This document shows positions 734 through 63,960 of a stretch of DNA of 64,000 bases, one piece after another. Each line of letters begins with the position of its first letter. Position 1 is the first letter of the stretch. This stretch comes from Eledone cirrhosa (lineage: Eukaryota): positions 232,128,001 to 232,192,000 of the forward strand of contig OZ024742.1 of NCBI GenBank assembly GCA_964016885.1, written 5' to 3'. The position numbers and the translations under genes are program-made. The notes under the pieces are model-generated. The model saw only the letters and a list, made by a program, of their open reading frames with translations, made no database searches and was not told where the DNA came from.

Positions 734-939
734 TGGAGTGAAATCAACTGGTGCGTGTGTTTCTTATTAGCAACATGACCCTCCCAAAGTATAACAATAT
801 ATAACAAATATAAAAGATTAATTAATATATCAATATTGTAGCATTTAAATAAATCCGCTAGAAAAAAATCAAATTTTAGATTTTATTAGCTAGATCTAGC
901 TAGAAAATAGTTAAATTAGCAACCCTACAAGAAGTAAAT

Positions 940-1450
940 AAAGTACAATCATGTTTAACAGATACGCTAAAACATCACCAGTTTTTGTAAATGGAAAGAC
1001 CATCGAGAAAGTAGACAGATATGTGTACCTCGGAAAGAAGATGGCAAGAGATGGTGCTCTACTTCTGGAGGTCAAAAGAATGATTGTGCTTGGCTGGGCG
1101 GCTTTTGGAAAAGTTTATAAGAAGTCAACAATCGAAACCAAAAGAAAACTGTTTAATGAATACGTTCCGCCGGTGATGACTTATGGAAGTGAAACGTGGG
1201 CACCTGCACCGTAGAGACGCTTGCAATGGCTCAACGTAAAATGGAAGCGAATCATGCACAGCATCACCTTACCTGACAAGAAGAGCAACAGTGAAGGACA
1301 TAATCAAGACCACCAAGTAGGGCAAACATGGATGGGCTGGACATGCTTCTCGTCTCAGAGACTACAGAGTAGATGCCAAGGCAGTGGAGAAGAACTAGAA
1401 GGCGACCATGGGCAAGATAGTGTAACAATCTGACCTGATACCATGACCAG
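940..1450 (+). mobile_element. Degenerate RTE-clade LINE fragment (RT C-terminal part)
   Basis: ORF 951-1214 contains EKVDRYVYLG...GWAAFGK...KRKLFNEYVPPVMTYGSETW; the continuation is frameshifted. Confidence 0.85.
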
Positions 1451-1626
1451 AGAAAGGAAATGGTGGAGTGAGAAGACCATGGATTTGGGATTTGGTGTCC
1501 CTAAATACATAATACGGATTTATTTTCAATCTTTTAGACATTTAAAATTTTATATCAGTCATTTAAGAATTAAAAAAATATATATATGTAATTTCTCATA
1601 AATTCTTTTAAATATTTTATCCCATT

Positions 1627-1788
1627 TAACCCTTTAGCATTTACATTACTCTCTATTTACTGTTGTACTTTCACAATAAACACTTTATTTCACATAACCT
1701 TAACACCAATAAGAGCAACTGTTTATGGCCGGTGTAAACAAAGTGAGAGAATTCTGACTGGATGGTCAGTTTAAATGCTAAAGGGTTA
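1627..1788. mobile_element. piggyBac-type MITE family A (TTAA-CCCTTTAGCATT...AATGCTAAAGGG-TTAA)
   Basis: Terminal inverted repeats flanked by TTAA. Related copies at ~16661-16876, 31275-31465, 31747-31927, 41210-41410, 51147-51361 and 58338-58546. Confidence 0.85.
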
Positions 1789-2039
1789 ACAAGTAAATTT
1801 CTTTGCGTAGCTCCAGGTCAAATCTGATTGACTTGACCAATGATCAAACGCATTCCATCCATGGCCATCCCGTCTTTTTAGACAGTGTTTTATCTTTTGT
1901 ATGTCGATATGGTGTAAACGGAGAGAGATTTCACTGCTATTTCTAGTAAGTCGAGCTACGACGCAGCTTTGCTATATCTGATAAGTGAGAGTTCCGCCAA
2001 TGCATGTAAAGGGAGAAAACTAGAGTATTTTGGTATAAA

Positions 2040-2132
2040 TCACCGCTGTCATTTATGGGTTGAACTGAAAATTCACCAAATGTTAGTTATCGCTCCTTCT
2101 TAGCATGTTCAAGGAGAACTTTGCGAAAGTTT
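2040..2132 (+). other. GTPBP8: Probable first exon of GTPBP8 (5' boundary unknown)
   Basis: Strong donor ttt|GTAAGT at 2133 in a locally CpG-richer, non-repetitive stretch; it would join the acceptor at 4485/4486. Confidence 0.5.
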
Positions 2133-2889
2133 GTAAGTACTGATTTGTATTTAGTAACTTATTTGGAATCTCTAAGTATATCAAAATGGTGTATATTAGA
2201 CTACAAGGAAAGTTTTCTTTACCATTATATGTTGTTATCTTTGGTGTTCGTTACTTCACTATTAAAATGAATGCTCATTGGGCTAGTGTTGAGAACAAAA
2301 GAAGAGGGAGAATCATGACACAACACCAAGTCTAGATCAGAATTTCTCTTGCAGTTGCTTTGATCGGGTCTGTCTGTCCTTTATTAGTCTCGGCAGCCAC
2401 CAGCGAGCTTGTAATAGGCTTGGACAGGCCTCTTCATAAATCTTCGTTAGTGAAGCCAAGCCATGATTAAAGTGACGAACCAACGATGGGAGCTTCTACG
2501 TGGTCCTTGAAACTACCCTCAAATTGCACTATTTTAAGAAAATATACTCATAAAATAATTCTAGATACACCTAGAAAGACGAGATAATTACGCCTGGAAT
2601 GTCTTCTCTGTTATAGCTGACCTGACGCTAAACAAAACAATAACTATTAAAAGACAGCTAGGATATGTTGTGATGGGGATGCCAAAATATCTTATAAGTA
2701 TAACCAGTGGGGTACATTACATAGTACAGTGCAAACTTAATGATCTATGAAAGAAGAAAGAATTCGTGCGTAGTAATAGGAAATCAGTAGCTTAATAGAT
2801 GTTGACATAATGTTAAAGATTAGTGAAACCGAAAACGTCTATGCCGAACTTATGTGGAATACGCAGATATCGATTATAGATTATACATT

Positions 2890-3075
2890 TGCGGGTGGAC
2901 CTCCGTCGGTTTCGATGTGAGTGTTTCAGTTGTTCAATCAACGGAACGGCGTGCTCATGCAATTAACGTGTAAGTTGTTATTCATTCCATTGACACGTGT
3001 ATCCGTAACGTAATTTTCAGGGAAATTCAGCGTGACAGTGTATACTAAGATTGGCCCTTTGAATTACAGGTACAG
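2890..3075. mobile_element. SINE fragment (octopod-type interspersed repeat)
   Basis: CpG-rich block caatcaacggaac...aattcagcgtgac...ggccctttgaattacaggtac, recognised from memory of cephalopod SINE bodies; not verified by search. Confidence 0.4.
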
Positions 3076-3234
3076 TCTACCAACGGGCTTCCGAATATTT
3101 CCGAATATTTTCCATCTGCCTAATTTCACTCTCTCTGCTAGGATATATACCAACTAAGCCCCCTTTTTATCAGCTATGATCACAACTACAAGCAATTATT
3201 GGGACTGTAAACATAATTTTCCAGAAGTTTAGCA

Positions 3235-3450
3235 TTAACCCTTTCATTATCATATTTCTGATAAAATACACTGTATTTGAATTAATTAATAAATAATTGG
3301 GAGAGATTTACTAAAATTATTTCAATTATTAAGATGGTATTTGTGACAAGATTTTTATATAAAATTTTGTTGGAAGATTTTAGTTTAATTAAGAACCTTC
3401 TAAATGGAGGGTTTTGTTCCATAGAATCAGAGGCAGTTTTTGGTTGGATG
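3235..3450. mobile_element. piggyBac-type MITE family B (TTAACCCTTT...), partial
   Basis: ttaaccctttcattatcatatttct... body shared with copies at ~31557-31980, 33218-33420, 36556-36807, 57460-57568 and 58308-58744. Confidence 0.65.
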
Positions 3451-4509
3451 GTATCCGTGTAGGCATACAAACATTGATGAGTTGTAGTGCACCTGAGCAT
3501 TGTATACAATAAATTTCTAATAACATTGTTGTCCTTGTGATAGACATTGGTTTACTATGGACATATGTTACATAGAGGGAGGAGTGCAAGATTGTAACTA
3601 GATTGATTTGAGAGGTATAGTTGTCTTAGCCATATTAAGAAGTTTGCCTTGTAATCATGAGGCGCTATGGTTTGCTGCAGAAACAGAGTCAAAAGTCCTT
3701 GACAAACTGTATTTGTCTGTGGCTGGTAGACTTTATATATCTACATCTAGTGCATTTGAAGTGCAGGTTATTTGTCAGTTTGACAGAAACCTTACTGCTT
3801 ATTTTTTGTACCTATCACTTGCACAGTATAATGCTCATACCCACTCCATATATATATTGAGCAATGTGCTTTCCCAGATAACACTGGAATTTTGTTCTTT
3901 TCATCCTTAACTTAGTCTCTGTGAGTGTGTTGTGTCAAAGCTCCACCTTAGCAACAGTCAGGTTGTTAGATTAGAGATGTTTGAGAGGACTCTTCAGTTT
4001 GGCCTGGCATATAACAATCTCTCTAGTTCTGGTCCCACAATAAAATGCACCCAGTATACCCTTTAAAGTATCTATGTTGATGCCATAATAAAATACACCC
4101 AGTCCACTCTGTAAAGTGGTAGTGTTGATGTCAGGAAAAATACACCCTGTAAGGTCTGGAAGGTGGTTAACATTATGAAGAACATCCAGCAATAGAAACC
4201 TTGCTAAATACGGTATATATTGAGCAAGATCTGTCATTTATCTGGACTCGGACAATGACAACCTATCCAACCCAGCCAGTGTGGAAAGCAGACATAAAAT
4301 GATGATGATGATGATAACATTTTCACCACAGCTTCAACTCTGAGTGTAAACTTGTGAATATTTTAACACTATTTCTTTTCAACATTATAGGATATTAAAT
4401 TGATAAGCAAATCAATCCTTAATAAAATTTGTATTTTATTAATATACTGATGCTATTTTCTTCTATTTTTAAAAATCTTTTACAGAATAAATGCTTCTCT
4501 TGGATTAGA

Positions 4510-4821
4510 ATGATTGTAAGCAAAAGGTTTATGTATGAAATTGCTAAAAAAAGGAACACCATGCCAAAATTGTTGCCTATTCACCGATTAAAAAGCCAAT
4601 TGAAGCATTCTGATTACCTGAAAGAAATTTGCAAAAATCCTTTGTTAGATCTCCAAAAGCATCTTCAGGAACCTGTTTTTCAAGATACTTTAATTTTTCA
4701 GCCATGTATTAAAGAAATTCAAGAAGCAACAAAATTGTTTAAAGAGCATGGAAAACACAAAATAGGTTTTATGAAATCAGTATTTGACATGAAAGATCTT
4801 CCTGAAGAAAAGCTACCCGAA
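4510..4821 (+). CDS. GTPBP8: GTP-binding protein 8 (EngB/YihA family), coding exon A (acceptor 4485, first in-frame ATG 4510)
   Basis: tttacAG acceptor; MIVSKRF...FMKSVFDMKDLPEEKLPE then GTATGA donor, phase 0, joining [13 protein letters not shown] to give the EngB [16 protein letters not shown] motif. Confidence 0.85.
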
Positions 4822-4901
4822 GTATGAGATATTGTTATCCTTTTATTTGTATGTTTGCATTTAAAAACAAATTATCTTCCTTCTGTAACCCATATAAAAG
4901 T

Positions 4902-7601: not shown

Positions 7602-7862
<261 letters not shown>

Positions 7863-7999
7863 TGAGGCAATGTCCTTCTTGATTCCAACCCTTTTAGTCG
7901 CTTCTTATAACATGCAGGAATATGGTGTACTTATTTTAAACTGGATAGACAAAGCCTACCAGACATGCATTCTTTATCTTATTCCTGGAAGGCCTGCCA

Positions 8000-9951: not shown

Positions 9952-10350
9952 CATCATCATCATCATCATCATCATCATTTTACGTCCGCTTTTCCCTGCT
10001 TGCACGGGTGGGACGGGAACTGATTCTGGCTTGATTTCTACAGCTGGATGCCCTTACTAACACCAACCTCATTTACAGTGAGTGCTGGGTGCTTTTTTTC
10101 CGTGGCGCCTACATGTCCACTTTACAGTGTAGACTGGGTGCTTTTTTTCCGTGGCACCTCCACGACCACTTTGCAGTGGATTGATAGGGATCCCAGTACT
10201 ATCATCTCATTTCTATAGCTGAGTAAACTGGAGCAATGTGAAATAAAGTGTCTTGCTCAAGGAAACAACACATCACCCGGTCTGAGAATTGAACTCACAA
10301 CCTTTCGATTGCAAGGCCAATGCTCTAACCACTAAGCCATGTGCCTCCAT
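9952..10350 (-). mobile_element. Full-length tRNA-head SINE with CORE/V-like body and RTE-derived tail
   Basis: Minus strand: A box TGGCTTAGTGG, B box GTTCAATTC, then CCTTGAGCAAGACACTT, tandem ACTGTAAA units and a (GAT)n tail. A nearly identical copy lies at 22232-22580. Confidence 0.85.
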
Positions 10351-10786
10351 GTTTTTGGAAATTGATTTCCTTAATCTCCACCATCTGAAGTCAAAGTTTA
10401 GGTGGCTGTTACTGAATAGCAACAACTGTTGAGCACCCCATCTTCTCTAATATTACAGTATGCCTTTGAAACTTGACAGAACACTTGAATTCAGTTACCC
10501 AAATACCTGATTTTCAGTGTATCAAGGAAGTTAAAAAAATGGAAAAAGTGCAAATTATCTTAGAGTGGAACACTCTGACGTTAATGTTAAATTCCTTCAT
10601 CTCAAAGGCTCTGCAAGTCAATTTTTCTGGCCAGGTAATGACGACATCAGTTAGATTCCAATCAAGAACATCATGAAGAAAGTTGATCCACCTTCCTCTG
10701 CTGGATGCTTTTACAAGATGGACAGGGTGTTTTTCATTGTGGCACCAGTTCTACTACCTTGTGCTATTATTTTTGGTTTATATTAC

Positions 10787-11352
10787 ATGAATGAACTAAG
10801 AGAGAAATTAGGCATAAGAGGAATCAAATGCTGTGTGCAGGAGAGGAGATTGTGTTGGTATGGACATGTGTTGCATATGAAGGATGACAGCTGCATAAAA
10901 AAGTACAGAGCGCTCAAAATCATTGGAAGCCTTGGAGTGGGGAAACCCAGGAAGACCTGGAATGAGGTGATAAAAGCTGATCTTGCACCTCTCAAAGGAG
11001 ATGACACATGACCAGGATCTCTGGCGATATACAGTAATACAGAAGACCCGACTTTCTACGAGCACAAGCTGAAGCATATGTACAGTATGCCCCACCCAAC
11101 CCCACCAGCCCACACTGGACATGTAAAAGACACGGCAAAAAGCACCCAGCCCACACTGTAAAGTAGACGTGTATAAGACACGGCAAAAGCACCCAGCACA
11201 CACTGTCAATGTGGTTGGCATTAGGAAGGGCATCCAGCCAGAAACACCCCTACATGAGCAAGACACGGTTACCAAACCCAGCTTGCCTCTAAATGGGACC
11301 CGTCTAACCAATGCTAGCGTGGAAGATGGACGTTAATCGATGATGATGATGA
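10787..11352 (+). mobile_element. RTE LINE 3' end (5'-truncated) with 3'UTR tandem units and (GAT)n tail
   Basis: ELREKLGIRGI...RRLCWYGHV...GKPRKTW, followed by the same tail as 18973-20577. Confidence 0.9.
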
Positions 11353-18972: not shown

Positions 18973-20577
18973 CATCATCATCGTTTAACGTCCATCTTCC
19001 ACGCTAGCATGGGTTTGGACGGGAATTTACCCACTTGAGGCAAGATTGGTTGTCTTGATTGTATCGGACTGTCTGGCGGGTTTTCTACAGCTGGATGCCC
19101 TTCCTAACACCAACCACGTTTACAGTGTGGACTGGGAGGTTTTTACCGTGTTACCTACACGGCCACATTACAGCGTGGACTGTGTGTTTTTTTCGTGACA
19201 CCTACACGACCGCATTTATTTAGGACTGGATGTTGTGGTACCAACATAACTTTACATCGAAAGTGGGTGGGAGTAGTGAGACGGGGGTGTATTTTGGTAA
19301 GAGGTGCCTACTGACTAGGTTTTGCTTTGCACATAGGCAAGGTGGGTCTTCTGTATTACTGTGTAGCGCCAAAGATATCGGTCCAGTGACATTGTCTTGG
19401 AGAGGTCGGAATTTATCAGGTCGTCCCAGGTTTTTCTGGGTCTGCCTACTCCGTGATTACCGTCTATTTTGATTGCCCTGCCCTTTTTTATAAAGCTGTC
19501 TTTCATGCGCATCACATGACCATACCAACGTAGTCTTCTCTGGAGTAAACAGCATCTGATCCCTCTTATTTTTAATTTCTCACTTAGTTCATTTATGCTT
19601 TGCGGTTCACGTATATTACTATTACACATCCAACGGAGCATGCAAGCTTCGTTCCTCTCCAGTCTGCGTAGATCCTCTGCACACAATGCCCAAGTCTCAC
19701 TGCCATGTAACATTGTTGTTCGTATGCAGGCATCATACAACCTGCCTTTCATTTTTAGAGAAACCTTTAGCGGCCAATAGTGGTATAAGCTCTCTGAACT
19801 TTTTCCATCCAGTTCTGACTCTAGCTACTGTACTTTCAGAGCACCCTCCACGACTGCTGATTTTGTCACCCAGGTAACGGAAGGTGTCCACTATTTCTAT
19901 AGAACCATCTGTGCAATGGAATGGGCTAGTATTCTGTGGGCACTTGCTGCTACTTATTGTACCCAAGCACCGGCCACATATAAAATCTATATTCTTAGTT
20001 AGCTTACCTGTGATCCCACTACATCTTTTATGCACCCATACTTTGCATTTGGAACATAAAATGGAGTTTCTGCCTACTCCTTTCCTACACACTGAGCATG
20101 GCCATTTCCCAGATGGGACCAGTGCCCTATTTTCCTTCCTACATACTAGAACTTTAGTCTTAGACAGGTTAATTTTAAGGCCTTTTGATTCTAGGCCATG
20201 CTTCCATGTTTGGAATTTCTTCTCTAGTTCAGCCATTGATTCAACTATAAGTGTTAGATCATCAGCGTATAGGAGTTCCCATGGGCAGCCGGTCTTGACC
20301 TCCTCTGTTATAACCTGAAGAGCAATAATAAATAGGATGGAGCCCTGATGAACACCAACTTTTATGCTCAACTCTTCACTATATTCGTTGTTAATTCTAA
20401 CCTTGCTGACTGTTTCTTTATACATGGCTTGTATAGCTCTCACAAGCCATTCATCAACACCTAGTTTTCTGGGAGCCCACCAGATAATGGGGTGTGGAAC
20501 TCTGTCAAAGGCTTTCTCCAAGTCAACAAAAGCTAAGTACTTCTCCTGTAGCTGTCGTACAATGAAAAGAGCATGTG
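18973..20577 (-). mobile_element. 5'-truncated RTE-clade LINE (RT with internal PHD-like finger), frameshifted
   Basis: DLEKAFDRVP, GVHQGS, LLYADD, FRYLG, LHGSETW, RRLRWYGHV; 3'UTR tandem units and (GAT)n tail. Confidence 0.95.
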
Positions 20578-20589
20578 TGTAAATATATC

Positions 20590-20595
20590 TTTATT
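20590..20595 (-). terminator. Candidate polyadenylation signal AATAAA of the MBTD1/Sfmbt gene
   Basis: tttatt on +; it is the last AATAAA of a ~1.3-kb repeat-free, 3'UTR-like stretch before the LINE. Confidence 0.35.
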
Positions 20596-28689: not shown

Positions 28690-29490
28690 AGCGGTGGTGT
28701 AATTGTTTGCAAGATCTTTTTTTATATGAAATCATGTGTTGAAACAGATATTGTTATATTTGGGGAGGGTCATGTTGTCCTAATATTGCCAGAAGAAAAT
28801 AGTAAAACACATTCACTGTTTGGTTTGGTTTTCACTTCAGTATATTTTTATATTTGTATAAATAATTTAACTGGCAATCTATGTTTCATTGATTGCCAGC
28901 TAAATTATATGAGTACAAATATAAGTATAAATATAGTTTCTCAAAGTTCTTTCATTACACATATCTGTGACACCTTCACTGATTATCACGTTTCCATGTT
29001 TCTTCCTGCTGTGTTCCTGTTTTTTTTTAAATTAAATTTTTTGTTGTTGTCTGCTTCCACATGCGTTTGTGTGCATGTATTGTTTGCTGTGTGCTTGTAT
29101 GTTTATATTCTACCTTTGGTCACTAGTGTGTGTTTGTCTATGGTTGTTGTTATTCCATTCATGTTTTCTGTTCAGCCTAGGTTTTCTTAATTCTATTTCT
29201 GTAGCCTCACTAATTTGTCTAATTGTCGAGTTATTCCTATGTTTAGATAATATTTTAATTACTATGTTGTCTATTTTACCGACATGCCTTAGTCTGGCAT
29301 GTCCATATAGTACTGTCTTTTTGTCCTTTTAGTTCACTCCAGTGTTCATCAATCCTCTCTCTTATGTATGTCGTTATGTTTCTGCAAGTACCCTCTGTAC
29401 ATCTTATGCTATAGACTACATTTCTAGTTTTACAATGTATTTGTGGACTTACTCTACATATTACACATTTCTTATTTGTACAGTGGGTTT
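28690..29490 (-). mobile_element. Penelope-like element remnant (GIY-YIG endonuclease and 3' region)
   Basis: Manual translation: CKTRNVVYSIRC..C...YI(deletion)ERIDEHW, frameshift, then LYGHARLRH...RQISEATEIELRKPRLNRKHEW. Small hairpin at 28862-28908. Confidence 0.8.
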
Positions 29491-29558
29491 TCTTAAAGGG
29501 ATAAGTTTTACTGATCAGAGATTTTATGGTAGTTCCTGGTTTTTCTTAGAGCCTCTGG

Positions 29559-29765
29559 TTCACCTTCAGGAGTTGTATCCACGAACATGACACTCTGGTA
29601 TCTTTGGTTGTTATACCATGAGTTGGCTTTCCCTATCTTTTGCCCACTGTGCAGGAGAAAATCATGAAATAGCATCGATAATAACAGGGGAAAGATAGGG
29701 AAAGCCAACTCATGGTATGACAACCAGAGATACCATGTTTGTGGATGCAAACCCTGGAGGTGAAT
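29559..29765. repeat. Long inverted repeat (foldback/MITE-like)
   Basis: Core arms 29596-29640 and 29691-29735 pair at 43/45; outer arms extend ~30 bp further. Confidence 0.9.
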
Positions 29766-30384: not shown

Positions 30385-31090
30385 TTATGCTGGTGCTACA
30401 ACAAAAGCCCTAAGTCCATCATGTAAGGTGCCATGCCAAAAGAGCACCCAGTCTGCCCTTGGGGACATGATAAAAGCACCCAGTCCAGCTTGTGGGGTGG
30501 TTGTGGTAGTGAGACACAACAATAAATGTAAAGTGATCGTGAAATGCAAAGAGCACCCAGCCTATTCTTGGTGACATGACATAAAGCACCCCCCCACCTA
30601 GCTCACACTGTAAAGTGGCCATTGCTGTAACGTGACAGTGACACAACAAAAAGCACCCACCCCACACTGTAAAGTGGTCGTTTTGGTACCACAACAAAAG
30701 GTGCCCAGTTTACAATGTAAAGTAGTCATTTTGGTGCTATGACAAAAAGTGCCCAGTCCACACTGTAAAGAGGTCGTTTTAGTGCCACAACAAAGTGTTC
30801 AGTTCACACTTTAAAGTGGTCATATTGGTAACACAATAAAAAGCACCCAGTTCACACTGTAAGGTGGTCATATTGACGACATGACAAAAAACAATGTCCA
30901 CAATGTAAAGTGTTTCTGATGTCATGATAAAAAGTGCCCACCAACAATGTAAATGTGGTTGGTGTTAGGAAGAGCATCCAGCTGTAGAAACAAAGCCAGA
31001 AACAGTTCTGTATGAGCAAGGTACGGTCAAATGAAAAACTCATCTAATTCATACCTGCATAGAAAAATGGTCATTAAATGATAACAATGA
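30385..31090 (+). repeat. Expanded ~41-bp tandem array (AAAAGCACCCAGTCCACACTGTAAAGTGGTC-like) inside an RTE/SINE 3' tail
   Basis: About a dozen diverged units, followed by gttggtgttaggaagagcatccagctgtagaaac and the RTE-type terminus. Confidence 0.8.
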
Positions 31091-35435: not shown

Positions 35436-36381
35436 CTGAAAATATATTTTAAAAAATCGATAATTCATCCAAATACTTTAAATTTATGTTTTGTTCTATC
35501 TAGCAGTTCTTATATAGAATTACTGCCAATCTATATGACAACCCTGCAATGTAGCTTGCAGTGTCCACATCCTGCTTATACATTCTTTTGGGGTATGACT
35601 CCTGTGGTTAAATGACTTTATCATCAACAACATTGCGATATACTGGGTGCATTTTAACATGCAACAAGCAAAAGAGAGACTTCCATGTGAAGAGAACTAA
35701 AGAGTTCCTTCTATCCAGTATCAGTTCAACTTTGAAGTTATTGCCTGCCTAAACATACAATCTATGATGCAGCTTACAGAATGCATTCATTCATACATTC
35801 CATTTTTGGTGGGATTTCTCTCCCATCCCCAACCACTTAATAGTGTATACAGGGTGTACATTTTATCCTGCTACATACACTAGGAAGCCTGTAAATGTGG
35901 CAGGGCTGAGAAGTCCTCTCTACTGCAAAAAGAGGTTCAACTATATTTGCAGATTTTTGTAAAAACATGTGAGAAATAGTTTATTAACCCTAAATATATT
36001 TATCATTTTTTTTTAAATTTCAACGTAAGAACACCAATCCACTGAAACTTGTCTATAAGATTATATGATGGTTTAATGCTATTCTCTGAAATATTCATCC
36101 TTAAGGAATATATGGCAGAGGCAAGGATTAATACATTTTAGCCTAGGCAAGATGCAGTTCAGATATATTTCAGAACAGGATATCACTGATGCTCTCTACC
36201 TAATAAGTAATAAGATAATGACCAAAGAAGCACTTAGATGCAATCTGGTGGTCGTTATGAAAATCATGGACAGATAAATGGCATGTAAGCCGTATACTGT
36301 CATATACTTTTCAATATACATAAGTATTTTACTGTCTGTTTTGAATGTGAAGATTATACCTATCATTAGTGTATTTCATTA

Positions 36382-36465
36382 TTGTTAGTGTAATGTGGTA
36401 AATTAGGATTCAAAAGTTATGACCATATAACTTTTGGATCTTAATTTAACACATTACACTAGCAA
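36382..36465. repeat. Hairpin with 39-bp arms and a 6-nt loop
   Basis: 36382-36420 vs 36427-36465 pair Watson-Crick at 35/39. Confidence 0.9.
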
Positions 36466-36496
36466 CAAACAATGCACAAGGGAAAGAATGCTCTTG

Positions 36497-36537
36497 ATTC
36501 AGACATGTTTCACTCTTATTAGAACTCATCAGCAAAC
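36497..36537 (-). ncRNA. Minimal type I hammerhead ribozyme motif (Penelope-type), sense to the host gene
   Basis: guuug-CUGAUGA-GUUCU-aaua-AGAGU-GAAA-CAUG-UC-ugaau; palindromic ACAUGU stem III; stem I is weak and G:U-rich. Confidence 0.55.
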
Positions 36538-38115
36538 ATTGAGTAACCTCAAAACTTAATCCTTTTGATACTAACCTGCCCCTGATTCCACAATACAAAA
36601 CTATTTTTATTGTTTAAATTTATCTAAAAATCATCCACCACAATTTTGTGAAAGAACCTTTGTTTAATTATGCTCAAAAGAATAGCTTAATAATGAGAAG
36701 GTTAGTTATATTACTAAGTCCCTTAAAATTCTTTGATTTTTTTTTTCAAAATGATTTGAAAATCATCAGCAGTGTCTTTCATTAGAAATATGGCAATGAA
36801 AGGGTTAAAAGACGGGAGAAAAATATTAAGGGATGCTTGCTGTATGGAAATTAATAGTAACTTGGACACTAGTATATTTGATGTTATAAACCAATAAGGA
36901 ACCACATCATTAGTATATAGTATTATATTTGCACTTAAATTAAAGCTGAACTCTGTCATCTTTGGTTAATTGCTTTTCACCATCAACTGTATAAAGTTTG
37001 ATCTTCTATTGCACTGGTTTTATACATATATGAGTGAAGGTGAGAGCGACAGTGTCAGTGGAAGAGACACTGAAGTACAAAGCTCTAAGCAAGCTAAGAT
37101 TTATTTTAATTTTACACTGTGTATGTGCTTGTGACTACTCACCAGTTGTATGAGGTCGTTGACAACATGGCAGTACATCAGTCCATGTCATTTTGACAGG
37201 TACATGTATAAATACACAAATCACCACCATCACTACCACAATGATATATGCCAAGACAACATGGGAGAATGCTTGTGCTATCTTGCTAACCAGCAGTTAT
37301 GAGTATTGCAAAGGCATAGTGAATAAATAACATCATTACTTTTAGTTTGAATTCAGCTTGATGACCATCAAAGACCAAATTGATTGAAACATAGTTTAAT
37401 TCTAAATGTAGAGTCTAAAGGTGAGGTTAATATCTGGAAAATTATGTTATTTCTTATATTGACCTCTTTCAATGGATTTTTCAATAATATTTTGGAAATG
37501 TCTACATTCCAACCATAATTTATGCTCTCATGGACCCATTTCAACTCAATGATAATTCATCATCATCATTTTATGCAGATTTTCCATGCTGGCATGGATT
37601 AAACATGTTGTTGCAATGAAAGGCAAGTTAAAGGACCATGTGTTGCTGAATTTTGACATGGTTTCTATGGCTGGATGCCCTTCCAAACAACAATCCCTTT
37701 AAAGAGACCATTGGGTGCATTTTATTGTGGCACCAGTGTCATCATTTCACAGAGCCTACTGGGTGCATTTTATCCAGACACCAACACTACCACTTACACT
37801 TTTCTAAGTAGAATAATTTTTATATGTCAATTCAATTATCTTATTCTCTTTTATAATTATGTTTTACATCCAAGCATGGAAAAAAGATAAAACAATGTCA
37901 ATGATGATTGTTGAATGCTTCACCAAATATAAACATCTGCTGTAACAATAATTTCCTTTCTAAATTCTGAGTGATACATTTGTTATCAGTTGGATATAGA
38001 ATAGCTTCTTTATTAATCACTAGCTGAGGTACCCAGCTTCGTCAAGGTTAACAAATGATAAGAGAAGACCGGCAGAAGAGACAACGTCTGTATTGAATGC
38101 ATTGTCTTGTTTACA

Positions 38116-38142
38116 GTGTGTGTGTGTATGTGTATGTATATA

Positions 38143-38177
<35 letters not shown>

Positions 38178-38188
38178 GTGTACGTGTG

Positions 38189-38222
<34 letters not shown>

Positions 38223-38227
38223 CGTGT
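38116..38227. repeat. Compound (TG)n/(TA)n microsatellite
   Basis: Seen directly; similar tracts at 59037-59280, 60248-60315 and 60617-60722. Confidence 0.95.
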
Positions 38228-39084
38228 AATCCACCGTTGGAATCGGAGACATAGGCCACGAAACACGATCATCACTGACAACGAACTCAGAGAGAATCCC
38301 TTATGGTTGATTCCCAACCTGCTAGAAATAGCAGTCAGGTTGGTTAGCATACATGGTATGTCTTTCTTCTTCTTTGGTGTTATAAAATTAGTACCAATAA
38401 ACTTTCCTGGATATACTCTTATCCCAATCCTGTACATACTTTCCGATTGTCACTTTGTTTTTTTCGTGTGATACGCGAAGGAACCAACCAACAAACATCT
38501 CTCTTTTATTTGTTCATTCAAAATATTTTTCAGCTAATTCTGTCTTACAATATAAATCAGCAATCGTTATATAATGTTTAAAACATATGAATAGCTGCGA
38601 TATATGTACCATATCAATCAAAAACGATATGAGAATTGAATACCATACTAAAGCGCCACTAAGCTTGCTAAGAACCTGCAGATAGAAATGTTAATAAATA
38701 CAATATTTGGCTTGGGTAAACTTTAAGATGTTCTTTCATTGTAGGTTTCTTTTCTCCTTCTCTCCTCTTCCTTAGCTCGCCCTAGAGCATCCTACATACA
38801 ATTGACTATGGTTTCCCCAGATGAAGGCCAGCCACTTTTAGAGTTTGACCCTGAGCTTTGTTGATGGTAATCGCGAAGCTTACGCTCTCTGTTGCTCGAG
38901 TAACACATTTTCTTCTGGAAAATCTGATCTTGCGGCCAGGCTAGGACTTTTTGGGTGGCATATCGGCAGTAACAATGACGATAAGCCGTCTGTGCTTTCG
39001 TGAAATAAATACGTTTGTTTACATTTTATTTTTGTGTATGCAAAAATATCTGTACACGAATAGATAATTATATATATATATATA

Positions 39085-39261
39085 TAGAAGTGGTTACACA
39101 ACAGTTAGTTCACCATACAGAGAAAAATTGTTTCACCTTAGCGGATCCTCAGCTCGTAATGGACATGTTCCGTATAACTATGTCCATTACGAGCTGAGGA
39201 TCCGCTAAGGTGAAACAATTGTTCTCGGTATGGTGAACTAACTGTTGTGTAACCACTTCTA
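39085..39261. repeat. Near-perfect palindrome: 82-bp arms (80/82) and a 13-nt spacer
   Basis: 39085-39166 is the reverse complement of 39180-39261 except at 39119/39227 and 39125/39221. Confidence 0.97.
39184..39233 (+). ncRNA. Minimal type I hammerhead ribozyme motif (Penelope-type); mutated mirror copy at 39113-39162(-)
   Basis: ccauuacgag-CUGAGGA-uCCgcuaaGGu-GAAAC-aauu-GUU^cucgguaugg; stem I is 4+4 bp with a 2x2 internal loop; palindromic AAUU loop III. Confidence 0.65.
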
Positions 39262-39340
39262 CCTAAATCGTCCCATGGACTGAGTGCTCTACCACTACGG
39301 ATATTACCTTCCAGTGTTCTACCACTATATATATATATAT

Positions 39341-39753
39341 ATTAAAATAACAGATTAAAGTTTAAGCAAAGAATCACTGCTTTCACCCTTAATAGGATCT
39401 TCTGAAACTAAAAAATCAATCTGTGAACGCAGAAGTAAGTATTTCAAAAAACGTTGTAACCGAAAGAAAACAGGAAGATGATACTTTGCTTCGAATGTTG
39501 TATAACCGGAAGTGTTGTATAACAGGAAGCCGTTAGGAATGTTGTATAACCGGAAGTGTTGACATTTGAAATTTTAAAGAAGTGAATATTCAAATAAGTC
39601 TTTAATCTTTTAACAAAATGCAGTAGACAAAAATACCCTCACTTTCTTACTTGGAAAAAGTTACATCTATGGTGCAAATTTGGTGCCATTTGGTCCAGCC
39701 GCTTGGCGGAAAGTTTAATACTTATATACAGCTGTCAGCTTTATAGTATAGAT
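39341..39753 (+). mobile_element. Non-autonomous Helitron/Helentron-like (HINE) element with internal short tandem repeats
   Basis: Internal repeats of tgttgtataaccggaag; 3' part gtgcaaatttggtgcc...ccagccgcttggcgg hairpin...ctttatagtatagat, the same terminus style as 479-733. Confidence 0.55.
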
Positions 39754-40506
39754 TGTGTCTTGTGAGAATTAACCAAAATATTATTGCACTATTTTGATTA
39801 TAGTTAATAATTATTTCTATTCACTTAAGAAGTAAAATTCATCATCATCATCATTGTTTAATGTCCATTTTTCCATGTTATCACGAGTTGTCCCGTGAGT
39901 CAAGCCAGGTCAGGTCAGAGGACCATCTCTTGCTCATACAGAACTGATTTTGGCTTGGTTTCTATGGCTGGATGCCTTTCCTAACACCAATTACATTTAC
40001 AGTGTGTGCTGGCCGCTTTTTGTTATGTCACCACCATGACCACTTTACAGTGTGAGCTGAGCGCTTTTTGTCATGACACCTACACGTCCACTTTACAGTG
40101 AGGACCAGGTACTTTTTGTCATGTCACCAACATGACCACTTTACAGTGTAGGCTTACATCCAGTACATACATCATCATGGCATGGGTTGGAAGATGCTGC
40201 CACGGACTAAGACTAGATGGGCCATGGTACAATGTCTTGCTCATACATTCTATCTTTAGCATGGTTCTACAGTTGGATGCCCTTCCTAATACCAACCACT
40301 TTACAGAGTGTAATGGATGAATTTCATTTGGGCATTAACACAACCACTTACAGCATGTACTAGGTGAATTTGATTATAGCAACACTAGAAGGGCCATTGT
40401 GATATTAGCAGGGTGAAGAGAGGCGGTATTGTAAAGATGGGAAAAATTACAAGTAAGACAGGGAAACATATGTATATGGAACAGAAAGGAATAATCTGGA
40501 ACTTAC

Positions 40507-40603
40507 CAGCACTGGCAGTAAGCTTGTGTCCGACCTGCTGTGACCAACCAACTGGGTGGATAAGTGGGGATTTGAAATGGCACCAAAACTCGTTCGTCTC
40601 ATC
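40507..40603 (-). CDS. MBTD1: MBTD1/Sfmbt exon, end of MBT repeat 2
   Basis: DETNEFWCHFKSPLIHPVGWSQQVGHKLTASA, phase 0/1. Confidence 0.96.
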
Positions 40604-42169: not shown

Positions 42170-44495
42170 AGCAAGAGAAAGAACGAGACATACAGGAAGG
42201 TGTGAACAAGAAAGGTCTGGAAGCTAAAAGACCTTTCATTAAAATATAAATTTCGCAAAGCCCTTCAAGATGTATATGACGAAAACGAAGACGATTTAGA
42301 GTTGTATGACATAGATGATAACTGGAATTTCTTGCGTGACAACTTACTGCAGGCTACTGAAGAAACTTGTGGTTGGGGCAGAGGTTCAATCAGAAAGAGT
42401 GACCTTGTGCTGGAACAGCATGGTAGATAGGACCATTAGAGACAAAAGACTGGCATGGAAGGCTTGGAAAAAGGGTGGGAGTAGAGAAAGATACACAGCC
42501 GCCAAGAGAGAAGCTAGACATCAAGTGTACTTAGCACGCAGGGAGGCTGAGAGTAGGAGGTTTGCCAATGTTCTGCGACGGGAAGATCAGAGACTTTTAG
42601 TTTTCTGCATTGCAAGGCAGTGTGTCAGTGCAAATATGGATGTTGTTGGAGATAAGTGTGTCCGGAATGATGCCGGTGTACTTAGTGTCTTGAATGATCA
42701 AAAAAGGAGGCCTGGAAATGTTATTATGAGAGACTGATGAATGTGGAGAACGAATGGGAGAGAGAAATTACCCCCAGTAGACCCGACAGAGGGACCAGCT
42801 ATTGAGATTGACGAATATAGGTACAAGAGGCAATTAAAGAAATGAAGAATGGTAAGGCTGCTGGACCGTCGGGGATAGTTGCTGAGATGCTGAAGGCACC
42901 AGAAGTTGGCACTAAACTGGTTGTACGCATCATCAACCAAGCTATTTATGGTGGTGTCATACCCAAAGACTGGTGCAGCAGTATTCTCATAAATTGATAC
43001 AAAGGTAAAAAGGATGCTCTAGATAGGAGCAATTATAGGGGCATAAAGCTGATGGATCAGGTTATGAAAGTGGCAGAGAGAATATTAGCGCAACTGATTA
43101 GAGAAAGGGTCAAATTAGATGAGATGCAGTTTGGTTTTGTGCCTCGGAAAAGTACAACAGATTCCCTCTTCTTAGTGAGGCAACTACAAGAGAAGTTATT
43201 AGAGAAGAATAAGCCACTATACTTAGCCTTTGTTGACCTAGAGAAGGCCTTTGATAGGGTACCCCAATCTGTCATCTGGTGGTCCCTAAGGAAACTAGGT
43301 GAAGAGGAATGGCTTGTGAGGACAGTGTAAACTATGTACAGGGGTGCTGTCAGTAAAGTGAGAGTAGGAATGGTGTTTAGTGAGGAATTCCAGATACAAG
43401 TAGGTGTACATCAGGGTTTGGTCCTCAGCCCGCTCTTGTTCATTATAGTCCTCCAAGCCATAACAGAGGAGTTTAAGACTGGATGCCCATGGGAACTTCT
43501 CTATGCTGATGATCTGGTTCTTATAGCAGAATCAGTAGAGGAGTTAGAGAATAAATTCTGGCTATGGAAACAGCAGTTGGAATCAAGAAGACTGAGAGTG
43601 AACATAGCTAAGACAAAAGTGTTGATAAGTAGAAGAGAGGACAATACTCTGATTCCATCAGGGAAATGGCCATGTTCGATATGCAGAAAAGGAACTGGCA
43701 TAAATTCTATAAAATGTACACAATGCAGATCTTGGGTACACAAAAAATGTAGTGGGATAGCAGGCAAACTAACAGGTAGGGAAAACTACGTATGCAGTAG
43801 ATCTACATGGAAATTTGGGAGTAGTAATCGTAGTGATAGATACATTTTTCCAATGCAGGTGGGTTCTATAGAAGTGGTTGATAGCTTCCAGTACCTGGGT
43901 GATCAGATTAGCATGGGAGGGGGGAGTTCCAAGGCCATAGTATCTAGAATAAGGACGGGTTGGAAGAAGTTTAGGGAGCTGCTTCCTCTGTTGACAAAGG
44001 GTTTCTCCCTGCTTATGTAAGGACGGTTATATGATGCTGGTGTGAGATGCATAATGCTGCATGGTAGTGAGACATGGGCAGCAACTGCAGAGGATATGCG
44101 ACGGCTGGAGAGAAATGAAGCAAGTATGCTCCTTTGGATGTGCAATGTCAATGTGCGTGAACGACCAAGCATAGACGAGTTGAGAAAGAAACTGGGTATA
44201 AGAGGGATAAGTTGTGGTGTGCAGGAGAGAAGGCTGAGATGGTATGGACATGTGATGTGCATGGAGGATGACCGCTGGGTAAAGAAGTGCCAAGAAATTA
44301 CAGTAGAAGGAAGACGCAGTAGAGCTAGACCACAAAAAACATGGGCGGAGGTGGTGAGAGCAGACCTCAGATCGCTGAAAGTCACAGAGGAGATGATGAG
44401 ATGAGGGACCCTGACAAATGGAGAGATGCTGTGCTGACCGTCCAACCCTTGCAAGCAGGGAAAAGCGGACATAAAATGTCGATGATGATGATGAT
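42170..44495 (+). mobile_element. 5'-truncated RTE-clade LINE (~2.3 kb, RT region to 3' tail) with stops and frameshifts
   Basis: NYRGIKL, QFGFVP, DLEKAFDRVP, LLYADD, FQYLG, LHGSETW, RRLRWYGHV and a (GAT)n tail. Confidence 0.95.
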
Positions 44496-47400
44496 ATATT
44501 ATCCTATGTGAGTGTAAGCAAAACAACCCAATTAATTGAACTGCAAGCCCTAAAAAACTTTACATAGCCATACAACCTGCTAGAAACAGTAGCCAAATTT
44601 CCTGGGAATCACATCCTAACACATAGGATAATGTAATTCTAAATACACTATGTCTATATGAAAGACAAGATGGTCACAACAGGAACATATGATCAATCAT
44701 CGCTGACCTAGGGCTAAACAACAATATCCAGGAGCAATAATTATATCCAAACGAAGTGAATGTATTTTTACAATAACTATTTTTCAATGATCCATTGGCT
44801 TAATGAATCTATTTACAACTGATTCAGGGAGGATATCAGTCTGAATAAATATAAGCTATTGCTATAACCAGTATGTTTTGACAGAAGATAATAAAAAGAT
44901 ACAAAACGAATATTGTAAGGTTTTGATTTATTAGTAGCTTATTATTTTGATATGTTCTAAGTAAATATATTATCACCTCTGAGGTGAATTAAATAAATAC
45001 TAGGATTGATGTAACAGACTATGGCTTAGAAAGTGGTGCCGTAATGACTGAAATTAGTAAAGGAAAGAATAACAACGACAGAAGCTAACAAACAAAAGAT
45101 ATACCAAACACCAGAAAGAAATTTTCAGCAATAAATTACACATATGACTCCAAACAGACTTCCAAAGAATGGAATGTTTCAATGTAACTTTCCTGACAAT
45201 AATTTTGGATTGGATCTATGCAAAATATGTTTTCCTATACTCCTCTAAAACTAATCCAAATGACACAAAGTAAAGAACTTTAGATTCTCTAGAGTAGATA
45301 AATTTATGTAATAAAAGATTTAATCGATAGGAAATTAGACAAGAGTGACCAGAATGGTTAACTGTAATATTTAAGATTTATAGCTGGAAAATGTTTCATA
45401 TGATGCAGAAGCATTTATCATCTATTTTAATTATACATATTTTTTAATAATCCAAAATAAATATTCAAAAAGTAATAATTCAAGTAGGAGTAACTTCAAC
45501 AGTATGAAGCTCCTTGTTGTTTCCTGTCATTCCAAAAGAACAATAGTGGAAACAACAAAGAGTTATAATTCATCTTTCATTACAATGAGGGGTAAAATTT
45601 GTAAATACAATAAAGGACATTTGCATAAGTGGCTGTCTCTACAGAAAAATAATAACAACTAAAGAAAAATAAAGAGAGCTCTTACAATTATTTCTGAAAT
45701 TATTCAAACATAATTTTAAGAGCAGAGAGGAAAAAAAACAAAAAAAAAAAAAACAATAGCATAAAATTTTCAAATATATACATGAAAAACATTTTTTTTT
45801 TTCACCCTTTGAAAGGTTTCTGAAATAAACAATTCCACATACATAGACTAGATAATTTTAATATACACATTTTTTGTAAGATTTACATTATAATGTTTTA
45901 TACATTCTGCTATAACTAAAATATGGACAAAGAAATAAACATAAAAAAACTTTACAGTTATGAACAAATTATCAGAATTTTGCTATAAAGTCCACTAAAT
46001 TAGGTAACCAATCAAATCCATTAAATAATTATTTTTAACACACCCCACAGTTTCTTTATCTATGTGAATAGAGGCATGTGTCTGCCTGCTTGGATGTTTG
46101 TATAACTGAATATATGTATATGCATGCACACCTAAGTATAATTGTCTAAATACATACTTTATACAATTGTTTTAAAATCATTCACAATTAATTCATAGAC
46201 AAGACTGATGTAAAGGACCAATTTTTTTAGGAATGGGGGTGGGAGCTAGGGTGAAAACCTATCACAGCTGGACCCAAGAAAGATCTGTCATTATGCCACA
46301 TAAGGAAACATCAAGCCAGTTATATAGGTGAGAATGGAGGCTATGTTTAGGTTCAAGAAATCAAGAGAGTATAAAACTTACAAAATTGTGTAGTAGAATA
46401 ACCTTACAATCAGAACACAACTTTAAAAAAAATCCCTGTTTATCAAATGTCCAGAAATAGCTGCTAGCCACATTGACCAGAAAGAAGTGGTCACAAATTT
46501 ATCTTTGGTGAAGAATATATCCCTCAACAAGTGGTATCTTAATGCAGCCACTAATATGTTTTGTAAGAGGTGTACAGCTCCGATTAGTCATGTTGAGATA
46601 GTATGGTGAAAAAAAAACAAAGTACACCCCGTATGGTGATCTGATGCTACAACAAAGCACCTAGTCCACTCTGTAAGGTGGATGTGTTGGTGACAACAAA
46701 AATGCACCCAGTACACCCTATTAAATGGTCATTTTGGTGACACAATAAAAAGCACCCAGTCCACACTGTAACATGGTTGGCAACCAGCCATAGAAACCAA
46801 GCCAAAATACAGATCCATATGAGCAAGACATGGTCACCTGACCTGATTTGTCTCATGACGTGACAGCCCACTTAACCCATGCAAGCATGGAAAAATAGAC
46901 GTTAAATGGTGTCGATGATGAACTCTTTAAATCTTGTAATGATTTAACATATCTAAATATCTAAAACCAGGTTCGTTAATTCAAAAGTTTATAACATTTT
47001 TATTAGTGGACAGACCGTTATGAAAATTTGAAGTAAACTAAAGTCAGCAACTTCTAATGTGATGCAGCCATAGTGCTATTTCATGCTTTTCAAGAATGTT
47101 TTTTCTTATGCAGTTTCATGAGATACAGAATGTTAAGATTTAATAAAGCACTTTGAGTACCCAGACTATAAGTAATGGGAGAAGTTAGGCAGCAGGTATT
47201 GCTATAAAGGAACTAGATAAAATGTCAGAAACTATCTAGTCCAGAAAGATCTAGAGAGCAGTGTTTTTGCAATGTCTAACATTGTCAATGAAACCGAGAT
47301 AGAATTGCAAAAGAGCATATGCAATGAAATAAAAGAAGCATGGAAGTGTTATTATGAGGGGTTGATGAATAAGGAGAATGAATAGAGTAGGGAGGACATG

Positions 47401-60200: not shown

Positions 60201-61254
60201 GGCAGATTAACTCATAAGAGTCAACAAAAGTTTACTAGGAGAGGGAAACACACTCACACACACATATATATATATATAGACACACATACATATATACATG
60301 CTTATATGTATGTATGGTTCTGTAACTCTTGATAGAGTCGTAGGAGCACTGTATTGACATATGACATTTCTTGGACATTTTAAGCCTGGTAGAGCTCAAC
60401 CCTCTCCAGACCTAAGTACAGCAGATTTCTTCCAGAGAAAGACAGAAAGTGAGAGGGAGGAAATAAGAAAGAGATATATCGACCCCACTACTAGACTGGT
60501 AATTTTATTGTCGATCTCGAAAGGATGAAAGGCAAAGTTGCCCGTGGCAGGATTTGAACTCCGAAAGCAGAAATGAATACCATAAAGCATTCTATCCGAT
60601 GTTCTAAAGCCCCACATGCATATATATACATACATCTATATATAAACATATACACATATACACACACACACACATATATATATATGCATACACACACATG
60701 TATACATACATTCATATATGTGTGAAATGTATTTGCAAAATTGTTAAAACGTAGGATCGAATGCTTTGCAGTATTTGTTCCAGCTTGCTGCACTCAGAGT
60801 CCAAATCCCACTGAGGTCAACTTTGCCTTGCATTCTTTTGAGGTCGCTGAAAAAGTACCAGTTCATACTGGGATCAATTTTTCCTCACATCCACTCTCTT
60901 GTGCTCTGGAAGAAGTCAGCAGTTTCGACCTGGAGAGGAGCTGTGCTCTGCCAGGTTCAAAGTAACCAAGGCACCCCATATGTCATTACCGCATGCTTAC
61001 GACTCAACAAAGAGTCTCAGGTCTACACATACATGATTATATGCATATATATTAATATATACATATATTTTTGATCTAGTCTTGGACCATGACAACCTGT
61101 CCAATACATGAAAGTGTGGAAAGCAGATGTAAAATGATGTTGTTGATGATAATATCATCATCATCACTCCCTTTTCCATAGCTAGATACCCTTCCTGAGG
61201 GCAACCTATACTATATTTCCACACATGGTATATACTATTAACATTCATCAAACT

Positions 61255-61649: not shown

Positions 61650-63960
61650 AATCTAAATTCATCAAACCACTATGCTGCAAGAGGAATTTTTAGTAATTTT
61701 ACAAACAATTTTCATCAATAGTAGCTAAATCCAAAGGAGCTGTGCGACCTCCAGGCCACTGTGAAACAGCTATGCATTTAGAAACCACTTGTACTAATTT
61801 ATTTTGCTTGTCAACTTTGGCCAATAATAGATAGACATTTTTCTAATGCCATCAGGATCATCCAAAAAGAAGATGCTTCTATTCTGCTAAGAGAATCAAT
61901 TTATTGTAGTTGACTAAACAGTCCTCTGATCAGGCACAATTTGGGTTGGGTTCATTTTCATTTACATATCCAGTTAAAGAGTTGATATCATATGTTTTTC
62001 TTACATGTTCTGTTGCTAAACTGTTGACTTCTGATGCCACATGAAGATAGTTGTGATTCATCCATATATACATACATATATATCAGGTCTAGTCTTGGAC
62101 CATCTTATCTACCATATCATTTGTGCTTCATGTTTATTATTTTGTGTCAAGTCACTTTTTACTTTATCACAGGTTTTTAGCAGAATATGCCTCTCTGAAC
62201 CATTCTCGGGATTGATATATGATTTGGCTATTTTTTTTAAAGGTTGCACCGCATTGATTATCATTTTCAAGCATATGCACATTATGTATGAAGCATGCCA
62301 GCATGTCCTTTTAAATGTTACACAAACATGACCATCAACTGTTCTGAGATCTTCAAAAAATCGAAGCCCTTTAATTTCCTGCAGTACATTTTAAAAAAGA
62401 ACCACTCAGTCTGGCTGAGATGAAGTACAAACTCTACCTGAAGTACTGTGAAATCTTATGAAATGATCTTCAACTCCACGTCTTTTTCTTCTACTCCATT
62501 TCTTTGATTTTCCATATTTAATAAAATGGTAACTGGTGATACAATAAAGTTTGAGCAAAATTCAGCATAGTTTTAAAAGAGCTTTAAGAGTAATATCTCT
62601 AGCAAGTAAGAGTTTGTTGGACATGTTTCATTAGTAAAAAAAAAAAACTCTTTGTCTATTTTTGAAATGATCTGCAATTGCTGTATTGCAAGATATCTTT
62701 CATGAATAGAAAAACTAAAAATTCTCTAAAGAATGCTGCTTAAGTAATTGACTTTCTTGATAGTCACTTCATCAGATTCCTAGATTACTAGATAGATTTG
62801 ATGAAATTACAAAATTCTAGATTAATATGAGTTTTAGTCAAGTGAAGACAGGAACTGTCTATCTATTATATTTTATTCAACTCTCTCCATAAAATCTAAT
62901 CAGCAGGGGGTTTTCTGTGATATGAAGAATATCCATATTCATCTGTTTGAATATTTTTTTTTATGGTTTTAGGTAACATTCGGTACATTTTAAAAACTTT
63001 TATGTAAGGTGAAATAAAATTTAGAAAAACACATAGACCATGCACCATTTGAGTTCAAACTATTTCAAAGAGATCCTTGCCTGTGTTAGGACCTGAAAGT
63101 TCAGCTGAGTTAACAGAATCAATTTGATTAGCTTCAATTTTGTTGACCAGCCAAATCCAACAAGAGGCAATCCTCTTTTTTGCCATTCAATAGTGTACAT
63201 GTGGCCTCTTATTGACCAAAATATACTAGGATTTCTCATTAAATCCACCATATTATAAATGAAACACTCTGGCTGTGAGATCATGTCTGTGATTGTATGT
63301 TCATCCTGAATTTCCTCCCATTTAGCATTGCATGTAAATGTGATAAATAGGCCACATCAACCATAAGTGAGAACCTTTGTGATAGTTTGTTCATGTATTT
63401 AATGTGGACTGCCTATAAAAGTTGATAGGAAAATCTGAAATTGGTCAAACTCTCTTCCAGTTACACCATTGTTGATGCTATCTCTTAGATGTATATGTAA
63501 ATCATATCTTGATTATCTCAGATGCATAAAACTTTTGCTTCTATTTGTACATATATAACTTCAAATTGATAATAAAAGGTCAACAGAGGATAATTTAGTG
63601 GATTATTATAAACACAGAAATCCTTGCTACAATTTATACCTGCTTGAGGAACTCCAAAGCCATATCCATCTCCTCTGCAGGCAAACAATAAAGGATATTG
63701 CAAAACTTTAAAAGATCTATAGGTTTCATTGATGAATTACAGTGTTTCTTTGACCTTTAAAACAAGGTCTATTTTGCCATGTTCTTGACCAGTAATGATA
63801 ACATCGACTTCATTGGACTCTGGAAGATGAAATCATCAAGTATGTTATCTCTAGTCAGCATCAATGGTGATTTTGTATTCTGTAGTAGAGCATATCTTGA
63901 TGTTCAACAATTAGTCCCAATCTCCAAATGAAGATACCTTGGTTCTTCTTGAGGTAATCA
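61650..63960 (-). mobile_element. Degenerate Helitron RepHel remnant (Rep motifs + PIF1-type helicase start)
   Basis: LQYPLLF..GDGY, LFITFTCNAKWEEI, YTIEWQKRGLP, FEDLRTVDG, decayed Walker A IFFLDDPDGIRK and PGGRTA, in the expected order. Confidence 0.88.

Follow-up and report, generated by a model that had tools for sequence, protein, structure and literature searches.

A head-to-head palindrome of two truncated, hammerhead-bearing repeat ends in an MBTD1-like intron of Eledone cirrhosa: a likely young Penelope-like insertion

The palindrome and its setting

Within the 64,000-nt stretch of Eledone cirrhosa DNA that we analysed (the window) there is an inverted repeat with arms at 39085-39166 and 39180-39261. 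Each arm is 82 nt in length, and the two are complementary at 80 of 82 positions on either side of a 13-nt spacer, with mismatches at 39119/39227 and 39125/39221. The coordinates, identity and mismatches are those given in a preliminary description of the locus. On comparing the window with itself using BLAST, the palindrome is the sole short-range inverted repeat above 91%, and BLASTN found no further copies of the arms within the 64,000 nt. The 177 bases of the - strand are calculated to form a hairpin of -145.8 kcal/mol, with a z score of -27, and none of 200 shuffled sequences was equally stable. Rfam microRNA models matched below their gathering thresholds (MIR6217 with 79.1 of 110 bits, mir-63 with 38.1 of 55 and mir-2001 with 37.1 of 74). 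These matches are explained by the hairpin, and we have rejected an identity as a microRNA precursor.

The palindrome lies between exons 40618-40508 and 35439-35356 of an MBTD1-like gene on the - strand, mapped using an MBT-domain protein of Octopus bimaculoides that was the nearest named relative among four matches. The mapping agrees with the original assignment of the palindrome to an MBTD1 intron and of the left-arm motif to the host-sense strand. The right limit of 39261 originally given was too short, as the element continues to 39327. Also overlooked were the 66-nt tail, the origin of the spacer in a repeat family (family 1, below), and two other hammerhead-like motifs in the same intron. 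The features of the locus are collected in Table 1.

Table 1. Features at the palindrome locus, numbered from the first nucleotide of the window
Feature	Position	Strand	Remarks
Host intron, MBTD1-like gene	35440..40507	-	Between flanking exon matches, limits approximate; GT and AG present
(TA)10 microsatellite, left target	39067..39086	.	3′ end of inverted copy adjoins; mirror position 39261 leads into (TA)n in 63 X1 contigs
Inverted 5′-truncated family 1 copy	39085..39166	-	Stops at inner 3′ end, without tail; hammerhead motif on host-sense strand at 39162-39113, in which 39125 and 39119 are derived
Foldback junction	39166..39167	.	1-2 bases fit inverted copy and family upstream sequence alike (probable microhomology)
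Direct 5′-truncated family 1 copy	39167..39261	+	Includes spacer 39167-39179, of family origin; right arm 39180-39261 has the family majority sequence
Type I minimal hammerhead motif, intact core	39184..39233	+	Antisense to host gene; cut predicted after 39223
One-sided 66-nt tail to outer 3′ end of family 1	39262..39327	+	Internal 30-nt-spaced repeat; seen in X1 joints and X5 record 20
(TA)7 microsatellite, right target	39328..39342	.	Common to families 1 and 2; loose contig ends at 39326 and 39342
Family 2 copy, older, very high-copy repeat	39343..39500	-	Far limit approximate; 3′ end at the same (TA)n, tail-to-tail with family 1 across (TA)7

Elsewhere in the window there are exons of a second gene at 4426-4827 and 7602-7865 (+), of which 7602-7862 matches the Pfam GTPase family MMR_HSR1 (E 7.6e-06). 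At 60292-61052, upstream of the first mapped MBTD1-like exon, there is a long, degenerate inverted repeat (65% over some 800 nt). Broken reverse-transcriptase frames at 19315-20590 (-), 42206-44404 (+) and 10655-11011 (+) are presumably copies of RTE-type LINEs. A dispersed repeat with a tandem unit of 47-49 nt, often following (CAT)n, is found at 4035-4167, 10072-10178, 19120-19216, 30642-30875, 39996-40149 and 46654-46777, and is probably a common SINE-like family. Close to the palindrome, 38400-39040 (-) is a moderately repeated sequence, with similar fragments seemingly at 62035-63736; its translation contains what we take to be a disrupted helicase motif of the Pif1 type, such as Helitrons have.

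Hammerhead motifs on the two arms

The right arm had been proposed to read on the + strand as a minimal type I hammerhead, and it does so. Stem I is formed between 39184-39193 and 39224-39233, with two sets of four base pairs separated by a 2 x 2 internal loop. The first core segment (39194-39200) is followed by a U·U opposition (U10.1·U11.1) and then a stem II of only 2 bp, with the GAAA segment of the core at 39212-39215. Helix III is a perfect 8-nt palindrome. The core elements CUGANGA, GAAA and NUH of the minimal type I hammerhead were found by the descriptor scan in both arms. On the - strand two base pairs, C15.2-G16.2 and the fourth of stem I, have each become C·U, and the palindrome of helix III is lost. 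The calculated free energy of its self-duplex is -6.4 kcal/mol for the + copy compared with +1.0 kcal/mol for the - copy. Thus both arm differences damage the - copy, as originally suggested.

With the exact core the descriptor, which was composed after the motif had been seen, gave two matches in the window against none in 40 dinucleotide shuffles. Allowing one core mismatch gave four, whereas the shuffles had 0.375 on average and at most 3. The Rfam covariance models proposed earlier as a check gave no such support: the search of 38800-39600 produced 18 matches at E ≤ 10, none of them to a hammerhead. The hammerhead fold of the 50-mer is calculated at -6.9 kcal/mol and the best fold at -10.7 kcal/mol; the probability of stem I pairing is about 0.5 in the 50-mer and about 0 in the 161-nt direct copy. 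We regard the + motif as a predicted, candidate self-cleaving ribozyme, in which every core base is as in the family majority.

A further motif in the same intron, at 36532-36502 (-), has the exact core, a 5-bp stem II closed by G·U, a palindromic helix III and a weak stem I. A 90-nt palindrome (82%) is located just 3′ of it at 36379-36468.

A very high-copy repeat with two 3′ ends

Contigs from four of nine runs (X1, X4, X5 and X6) were aligned to 38400-39830 at 80% likeness. The summed depth of X1 contigs reaches 2.6e5, 8.7e5 and 5.3e5 in bins of 39168-39311 compared with 17.8 at 39792-39830, values that are not copy numbers and from which we take an order of magnitude alone (about 10^4). 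The depth over this repeat, which we term family 1, falls toward its 5′ side. Upstream of 39166 the family sequence continues in 39 X1 contigs and one X5 contig, with similar loose letters. Because these contigs run on, the direct copy in the window is 5′-truncated, and the spacer is family sequence.

At the other end, 63 X1 contigs exit family 1 at 39261 into (TA)n. Joints in X1 jump from 39253, 39258 or 39260 to 39325-39326, while other contigs cross 39262-39327 to the next (TA)n at 39342. Since contigs either end at 39261 or pass through the tail, family 1 has two 3′ ends, separated by 66 nt. The left arm goes no further than the inner of these, and the right copy reaches the outer. In run X6, which carries the label of another organism, there are relatives with 19-21 differences in 110-117 letters, and three of the four end at 39342.

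The depth of X5 is confined to repeats, and this run appears to sample the same set of repeats thinly. Records 18-20 of X5 extend over 39166-39342 and differ from the window at 39179 and 39267 only. The alternative letters at these two positions are the X1 majority (70258 of 70415 and 355759 of 356864 depth units, respectively), the family having C at 39179. Positions 39221 and 39227 lie inside X5 record 18, and are absent among the 40 of 155 difference rows listed. It is therefore the right arm that has the family state, and both changes of the left arm, at 39125 and 39119, are derived. The family consensus therefore has the state of the right arm and not the UUU allele, which the preliminary description had named as a point against itself. 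In all, the locus has four changes in 244 nt (1.6%), and we therefore consider the insertion to be young. The arms had been called young or homogenised; the youth stands, while homogenisation is not needed, as the right arm is simply equal to the family majority.

Probable insertion by a Penelope-like element

Insertions of Penelope-like elements (PLEs) are 5′-truncated, often with an inverted 5′-truncated copy directly at the 5′ end and a tail of 30-40 bp at one end, and those of Naiad and Neptune are biased toward (TA)n, according to the available text of PMC8557442. The same insertion pattern is given in brief by Goubert et al. 2022 (PMC8969392, available text). Apart from the length of the tail, family 1 shares these properties. 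Its copies are 5′-truncated, as the 39 X1 contigs that run on upstream show, and it lies in (TA)n, the target of both Neptune and Naiad. An adjacent inverted, truncated copy is present at this locus, and the junctions vary. At least four foldbacks with other junctions are found among the 15 joints listed of 27 in X1 (39151-39191, 39158-39200, 39159-39195, and 39184/39222 on opposite strands), and record 14 of X4 is a fifth, crossing the center with 25 gap letters. These other junctions are represented by one contig each, three of the four with 23-28 letters on the short side, and we take them as supporting evidence and not as a count. The one-sided tail with two 3′ ends is also present, but it has a length of 66 nt compared with the usual 30-40. 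A partial tandem giving a pseudo-LTR, another trait of PLEs, is absent at this locus, and a tandem arrangement is seen in one X1 joint (39341 to 39187). The truncation, the two 3′ ends, the (TA)n target and the foldbacks at other loci all support the derivation from Penelope suggested originally. We conclude, with a probability of about 0.78, that the palindrome comprises two head-to-head 5′-truncated 3′ ends of a high-copy repeat in (TA)n, likely a young PLE insertion, with hammerheads predicted to be locked into the hairpin and mismatches that are likely to be neutral decay. Since no open reading frame is linked to family 1 we can only infer that it belongs to the PLEs, and we think this quite probable.

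The family 1 piece contains no open frame, and none is open through its 3′ end. A broken Neptune-type PLE remnant lies at 29110-29764 (-) in another MBTD1 intron, with the cysteine linker and GIY-YIG domain at about 29110-29640. It is 5′-truncated and has its own head-to-head inversion at 29559-29764. A word-based search with the remnant found nothing; a profile-free search found 82 related proteins, and two of eight relatives gave a weak Pfam GIY-YIG match. The remnant matches a metagenome contig (L001) by tblastx with E 6e-25. One of 256 candidates, L001 contains a near-complete Neptune-type PLE at 1-3441, with a repeated end and a minimal hammerhead of the ordinary G-C type at 3237, about 110 nt past the end of the ORF. 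None of 11 viral contigs contained a Neptune-type element. The remnant supports the local presence of PLE insertion chemistry. Comparison of family 1 with its 3′ UTR gave 60% over 76 nt, which is not significant (E 2.0), and there was no match between family 1 and L001. By eye we saw no likeness between family 1 and three octopus Naiad consensuses at their 3′ ends, and a text search of the source, in which the lines are wrapped, was negative. Recently active Penelope families have been described in Octopus vulgaris, and the word 'hammerhead' is absent from the available text of that paper (PMC13282606).

The locus might have been formed in the following manner. The endonuclease and reverse transcriptase of a PLE would have cut the (TA)n on both strands and started a cDNA at each of the element's two start sites for reverse transcription, leaving a left end that lacks the tail and a right end that has it. 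Both cDNAs would have halted after about 80-160 nt, and their 5′ ends would have been joined at 39166-39167 through 1-2 bases of microhomology. On transcription in either direction the antisense arm would be made first and would capture the sense hammerhead. The intron would then have gained an 82-bp duplex, a likely substrate for ADAR, and not a cutting ribozyme.

Comparison with known systems

The endonuclease-containing (EN+) PLEs, of Neptune type to judge by the target, share with this locus 5′ truncation, the inverted copy, the one-sided tail, (TA)n and a 3′ hammerhead (available text of PMC8557442 and PMC8969392). It differs from them in that both copies are reduced to the ribozyme region, with a near-perfect hairpin as the result, and in its longer tail. 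Pairs of hammerheads on opposite strands, 100-700 bp apart, occur in PLEs, as does a truncated PLE with a second, opposite-strand hammerhead at its 5′ end (PMC4209133, with Fig. S4A for the former, in the parts available). A biochemical parallel to the steps above comes from the available portion of a study of PAc, a Poseidon element of Anolis (PMC11167929). There the PLE protein, in purified form, cleaves AT-rich DNA on both strands and extends both, and reverse transcription begins at two sites bounding the tail. As here, the two start sites are downstream of the hammerhead and AC-rich, and the target is AT-rich; cutting and extension on both strands would yield such a foldback. The ORF of PAc starts inside the hammerhead, however, in contrast to family 1. 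Animal non-LTR retrozymes (10.64898/2026.07.22.740005, available text) are likewise non-coding and PLE-related, with a type I hammerhead, but they are head-to-tail tandem units, while this locus is head-to-head without such an array.

The minimal type I hammerheads of metazoan PLEs described in the available part of PMC4209133 have in common with our motif the exact core, a palindromic helix III, U at the cut site and a short core-proximal helix I. Their consensus has G10.1-C11.1 with an extra base and a helix II of about 3-8 bp; in contrast the base of stem II is U·U here, with 2 bp in family 1 or 3 bp in family 2.

The U·U variant in a second family

The preliminary description did not notice that a second repeat (family 2) adjoins the (TA)7 and that its stem II likewise has U·U at the base. 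The hammerhead-like motif of family 2 is at 39418-39354, on the host-sense strand, and has a 5-bp helix III, U at the cut site and one core mismatch at 39403; the stem sequences are unlike those of family 1. The X1 depth of family 2 rises to 1.9e6 and is lower away from (TA)n. It has a foldback joint of its own at 39370/39412, and is also abundant in run X6. Beyond it, 39493-39700 is high-depth sequence with short internal repeats of period about 17.

The U·U had been noted as a non-canonical feature. That caveat stands in so far as it is found in 0 of the 56 PLE hammerheads listed in PMC4209133, where the survey itself demanded a paired stem. Against it, the U·U is family-wide and recurs in family 2. 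It is also known from nature, in reported hammerheads with U10.1·U11.1 and a 2-bp stem II, where U·U is said to be the mismatch best tolerated (PMC3088659, available text). They share with ours the mismatch and weak stems II and III, and that text makes no connection to PLEs or to high-copy animal repeats. We found no literature on the U·U variant in PLEs or on such PLE hammerheads in octopus, although Lunse et al. (RNA Biol) may cover it. Searching metagenome contigs with the exact core pattern and viral contigs with a degenerate pattern gave no matches. Three matches to the degenerate pattern in prokaryote genomes have no stem I complement by eye and no other likeness, and we set them aside as chance.

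Alternative explanations

We have considered whether the structure is real and whether a PLE made it. A foldback created in assembly would be in keeping with the fact that no contig among those aligned from X1, X4, X5 and X6 spans the entire palindrome, and short-read assemblies are known to struggle with such structures (PMC8557442, available text). Yet the arms carry two differences, the sequences flanking them are not mirror images, the left end coincides with a natural 3′ end of family 1, the spacer is family sequence, and like junctions exist in independent contigs; an artefact is extremely improbable. We think it rather unlikely that family 1, instead of being cut down from an autonomous PLE, is a non-autonomous element that resembles a retrozyme or SINE or is a foldback MITE. 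The lack of a linked ORF and the very high depth would be consistent with this, as would an X1 joint from 39341 back to 39187 that reveals a tandem arrangement at another locus, although there is none at the palindrome. Moreover, animal retrozymes have been proposed to stem from PLE ends (10.64898/2026.07.22.740005, available text). Such a retrozyme mobilised by PLE enzymes would, however, entail the same mechanism of insertion. A MITE or TIR element with a fixed unit we reject, as the junctions differ among loci, single arms of the family run on upstream, and the tail extends beyond the inverted repeat at the right end only. The insertion of two truncated PLE ends remains our preferred reading.

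Two further proposals concern the ribozyme. The motif could be a hammerhead-like relic that cuts in no context, in accord with a U·U (or C·U) base on a 2-bp stem II, the failure of Rfam to recognise it, the preference of the 50-mer for another fold and the virtual absence of stem I pairing in the 161-nt copy. We consider this unlikely, given that the core bases, the palindromic helix III and the 8-bp stem I all match the family majority, that U·U recurs in a second family whose stems differ, and that natural hammerheads of this construction are known. Alternatively the host-sense ribozyme might be harmful to the MBTD1 pre-mRNA, with the two changes selected. Both are indeed derived, fall on the host-sense copy and break pairs, and the chance that two arm mutations would both fall on that arm and in structured positions is 0.018-0.054. 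A core mismatch is likewise found in the host-sense motif of family 2, and the introns of Xenopus are depleted of retrozymes (10.64898/2026.07.22.740005, available text). However, taken over all four changes in 244 nt, P becomes 0.04-0.19, for a pattern chosen post hoc, and because family 2 differs from the contigs of its relatives by 10-14 letters in about 114 a core mutation there is to be expected. The host-sense motif at 36532-36502 lies in the same intron with its core intact, albeit with a weak stem I. Taken singly, minimal PLE hammerheads do not cleave, and dimers of them are only weakly active (PMC4209133 and PMC6765202, available text); that of PAc cuts only with the PLE protein and is dispensable for insertion in vitro (PMC11167929, available text). 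The hairpin is calculated to be more stable than the ribozyme fold by >130 kcal/mol, and is predicted to form during transcription. In simulated - strand transcripts left-arm bases pair with their mirror bases with a probability of 0.95-1.0, from the first 15 bases on, in five of six snapshots, the sixth containing a single left-arm base. This supports the earlier suggestion that the host-sense ribozyme is sequestered, at least in the model. Since a head-to-head foldback always yields the antisense arm first, there would be little ribozyme activity for selection to remove. Selection is thus quite improbable; with P of 0.02-0.19 the suggestion that the two mutations mean more than chance is not supported, and they are likely to be ordinary decay rather than defence.

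Meaning of the locus

Taken by itself, the locus is a very short case of the inverted copies already known to result from PLE insertion. Its two arms end at different 3′ ends of family 1, just as priming from two ends predicts, which makes it a clean specimen for how PLEs make inverted structures. The U·U hammerhead in two abundant families is a lead worth following, and if it cuts then descriptor searches have undercounted the PLE ribozymes of cephalopods, and foldbacks of this kind could form a measurable share of the edited intronic RNA in these animals. More speculatively, and as a tentative proposal that we do not hold to be probable, octopod genomes may contain two or more PLE families that target (TA)n, were active recently and number on the order of 10^4 copies or above, with working hammerheads of U10.1·U11.1 and a stem II of 2-3 bp that are missed by Rfam and by published PLE descriptors. 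Their two-ended insertions would repeatedly make self-muting foldbacks, the footprint of priming on both strands by a PLE dimer, and these would supply ADAR editing in cephalopods with long intronic duplexes from a large source that has gone unrecognised.
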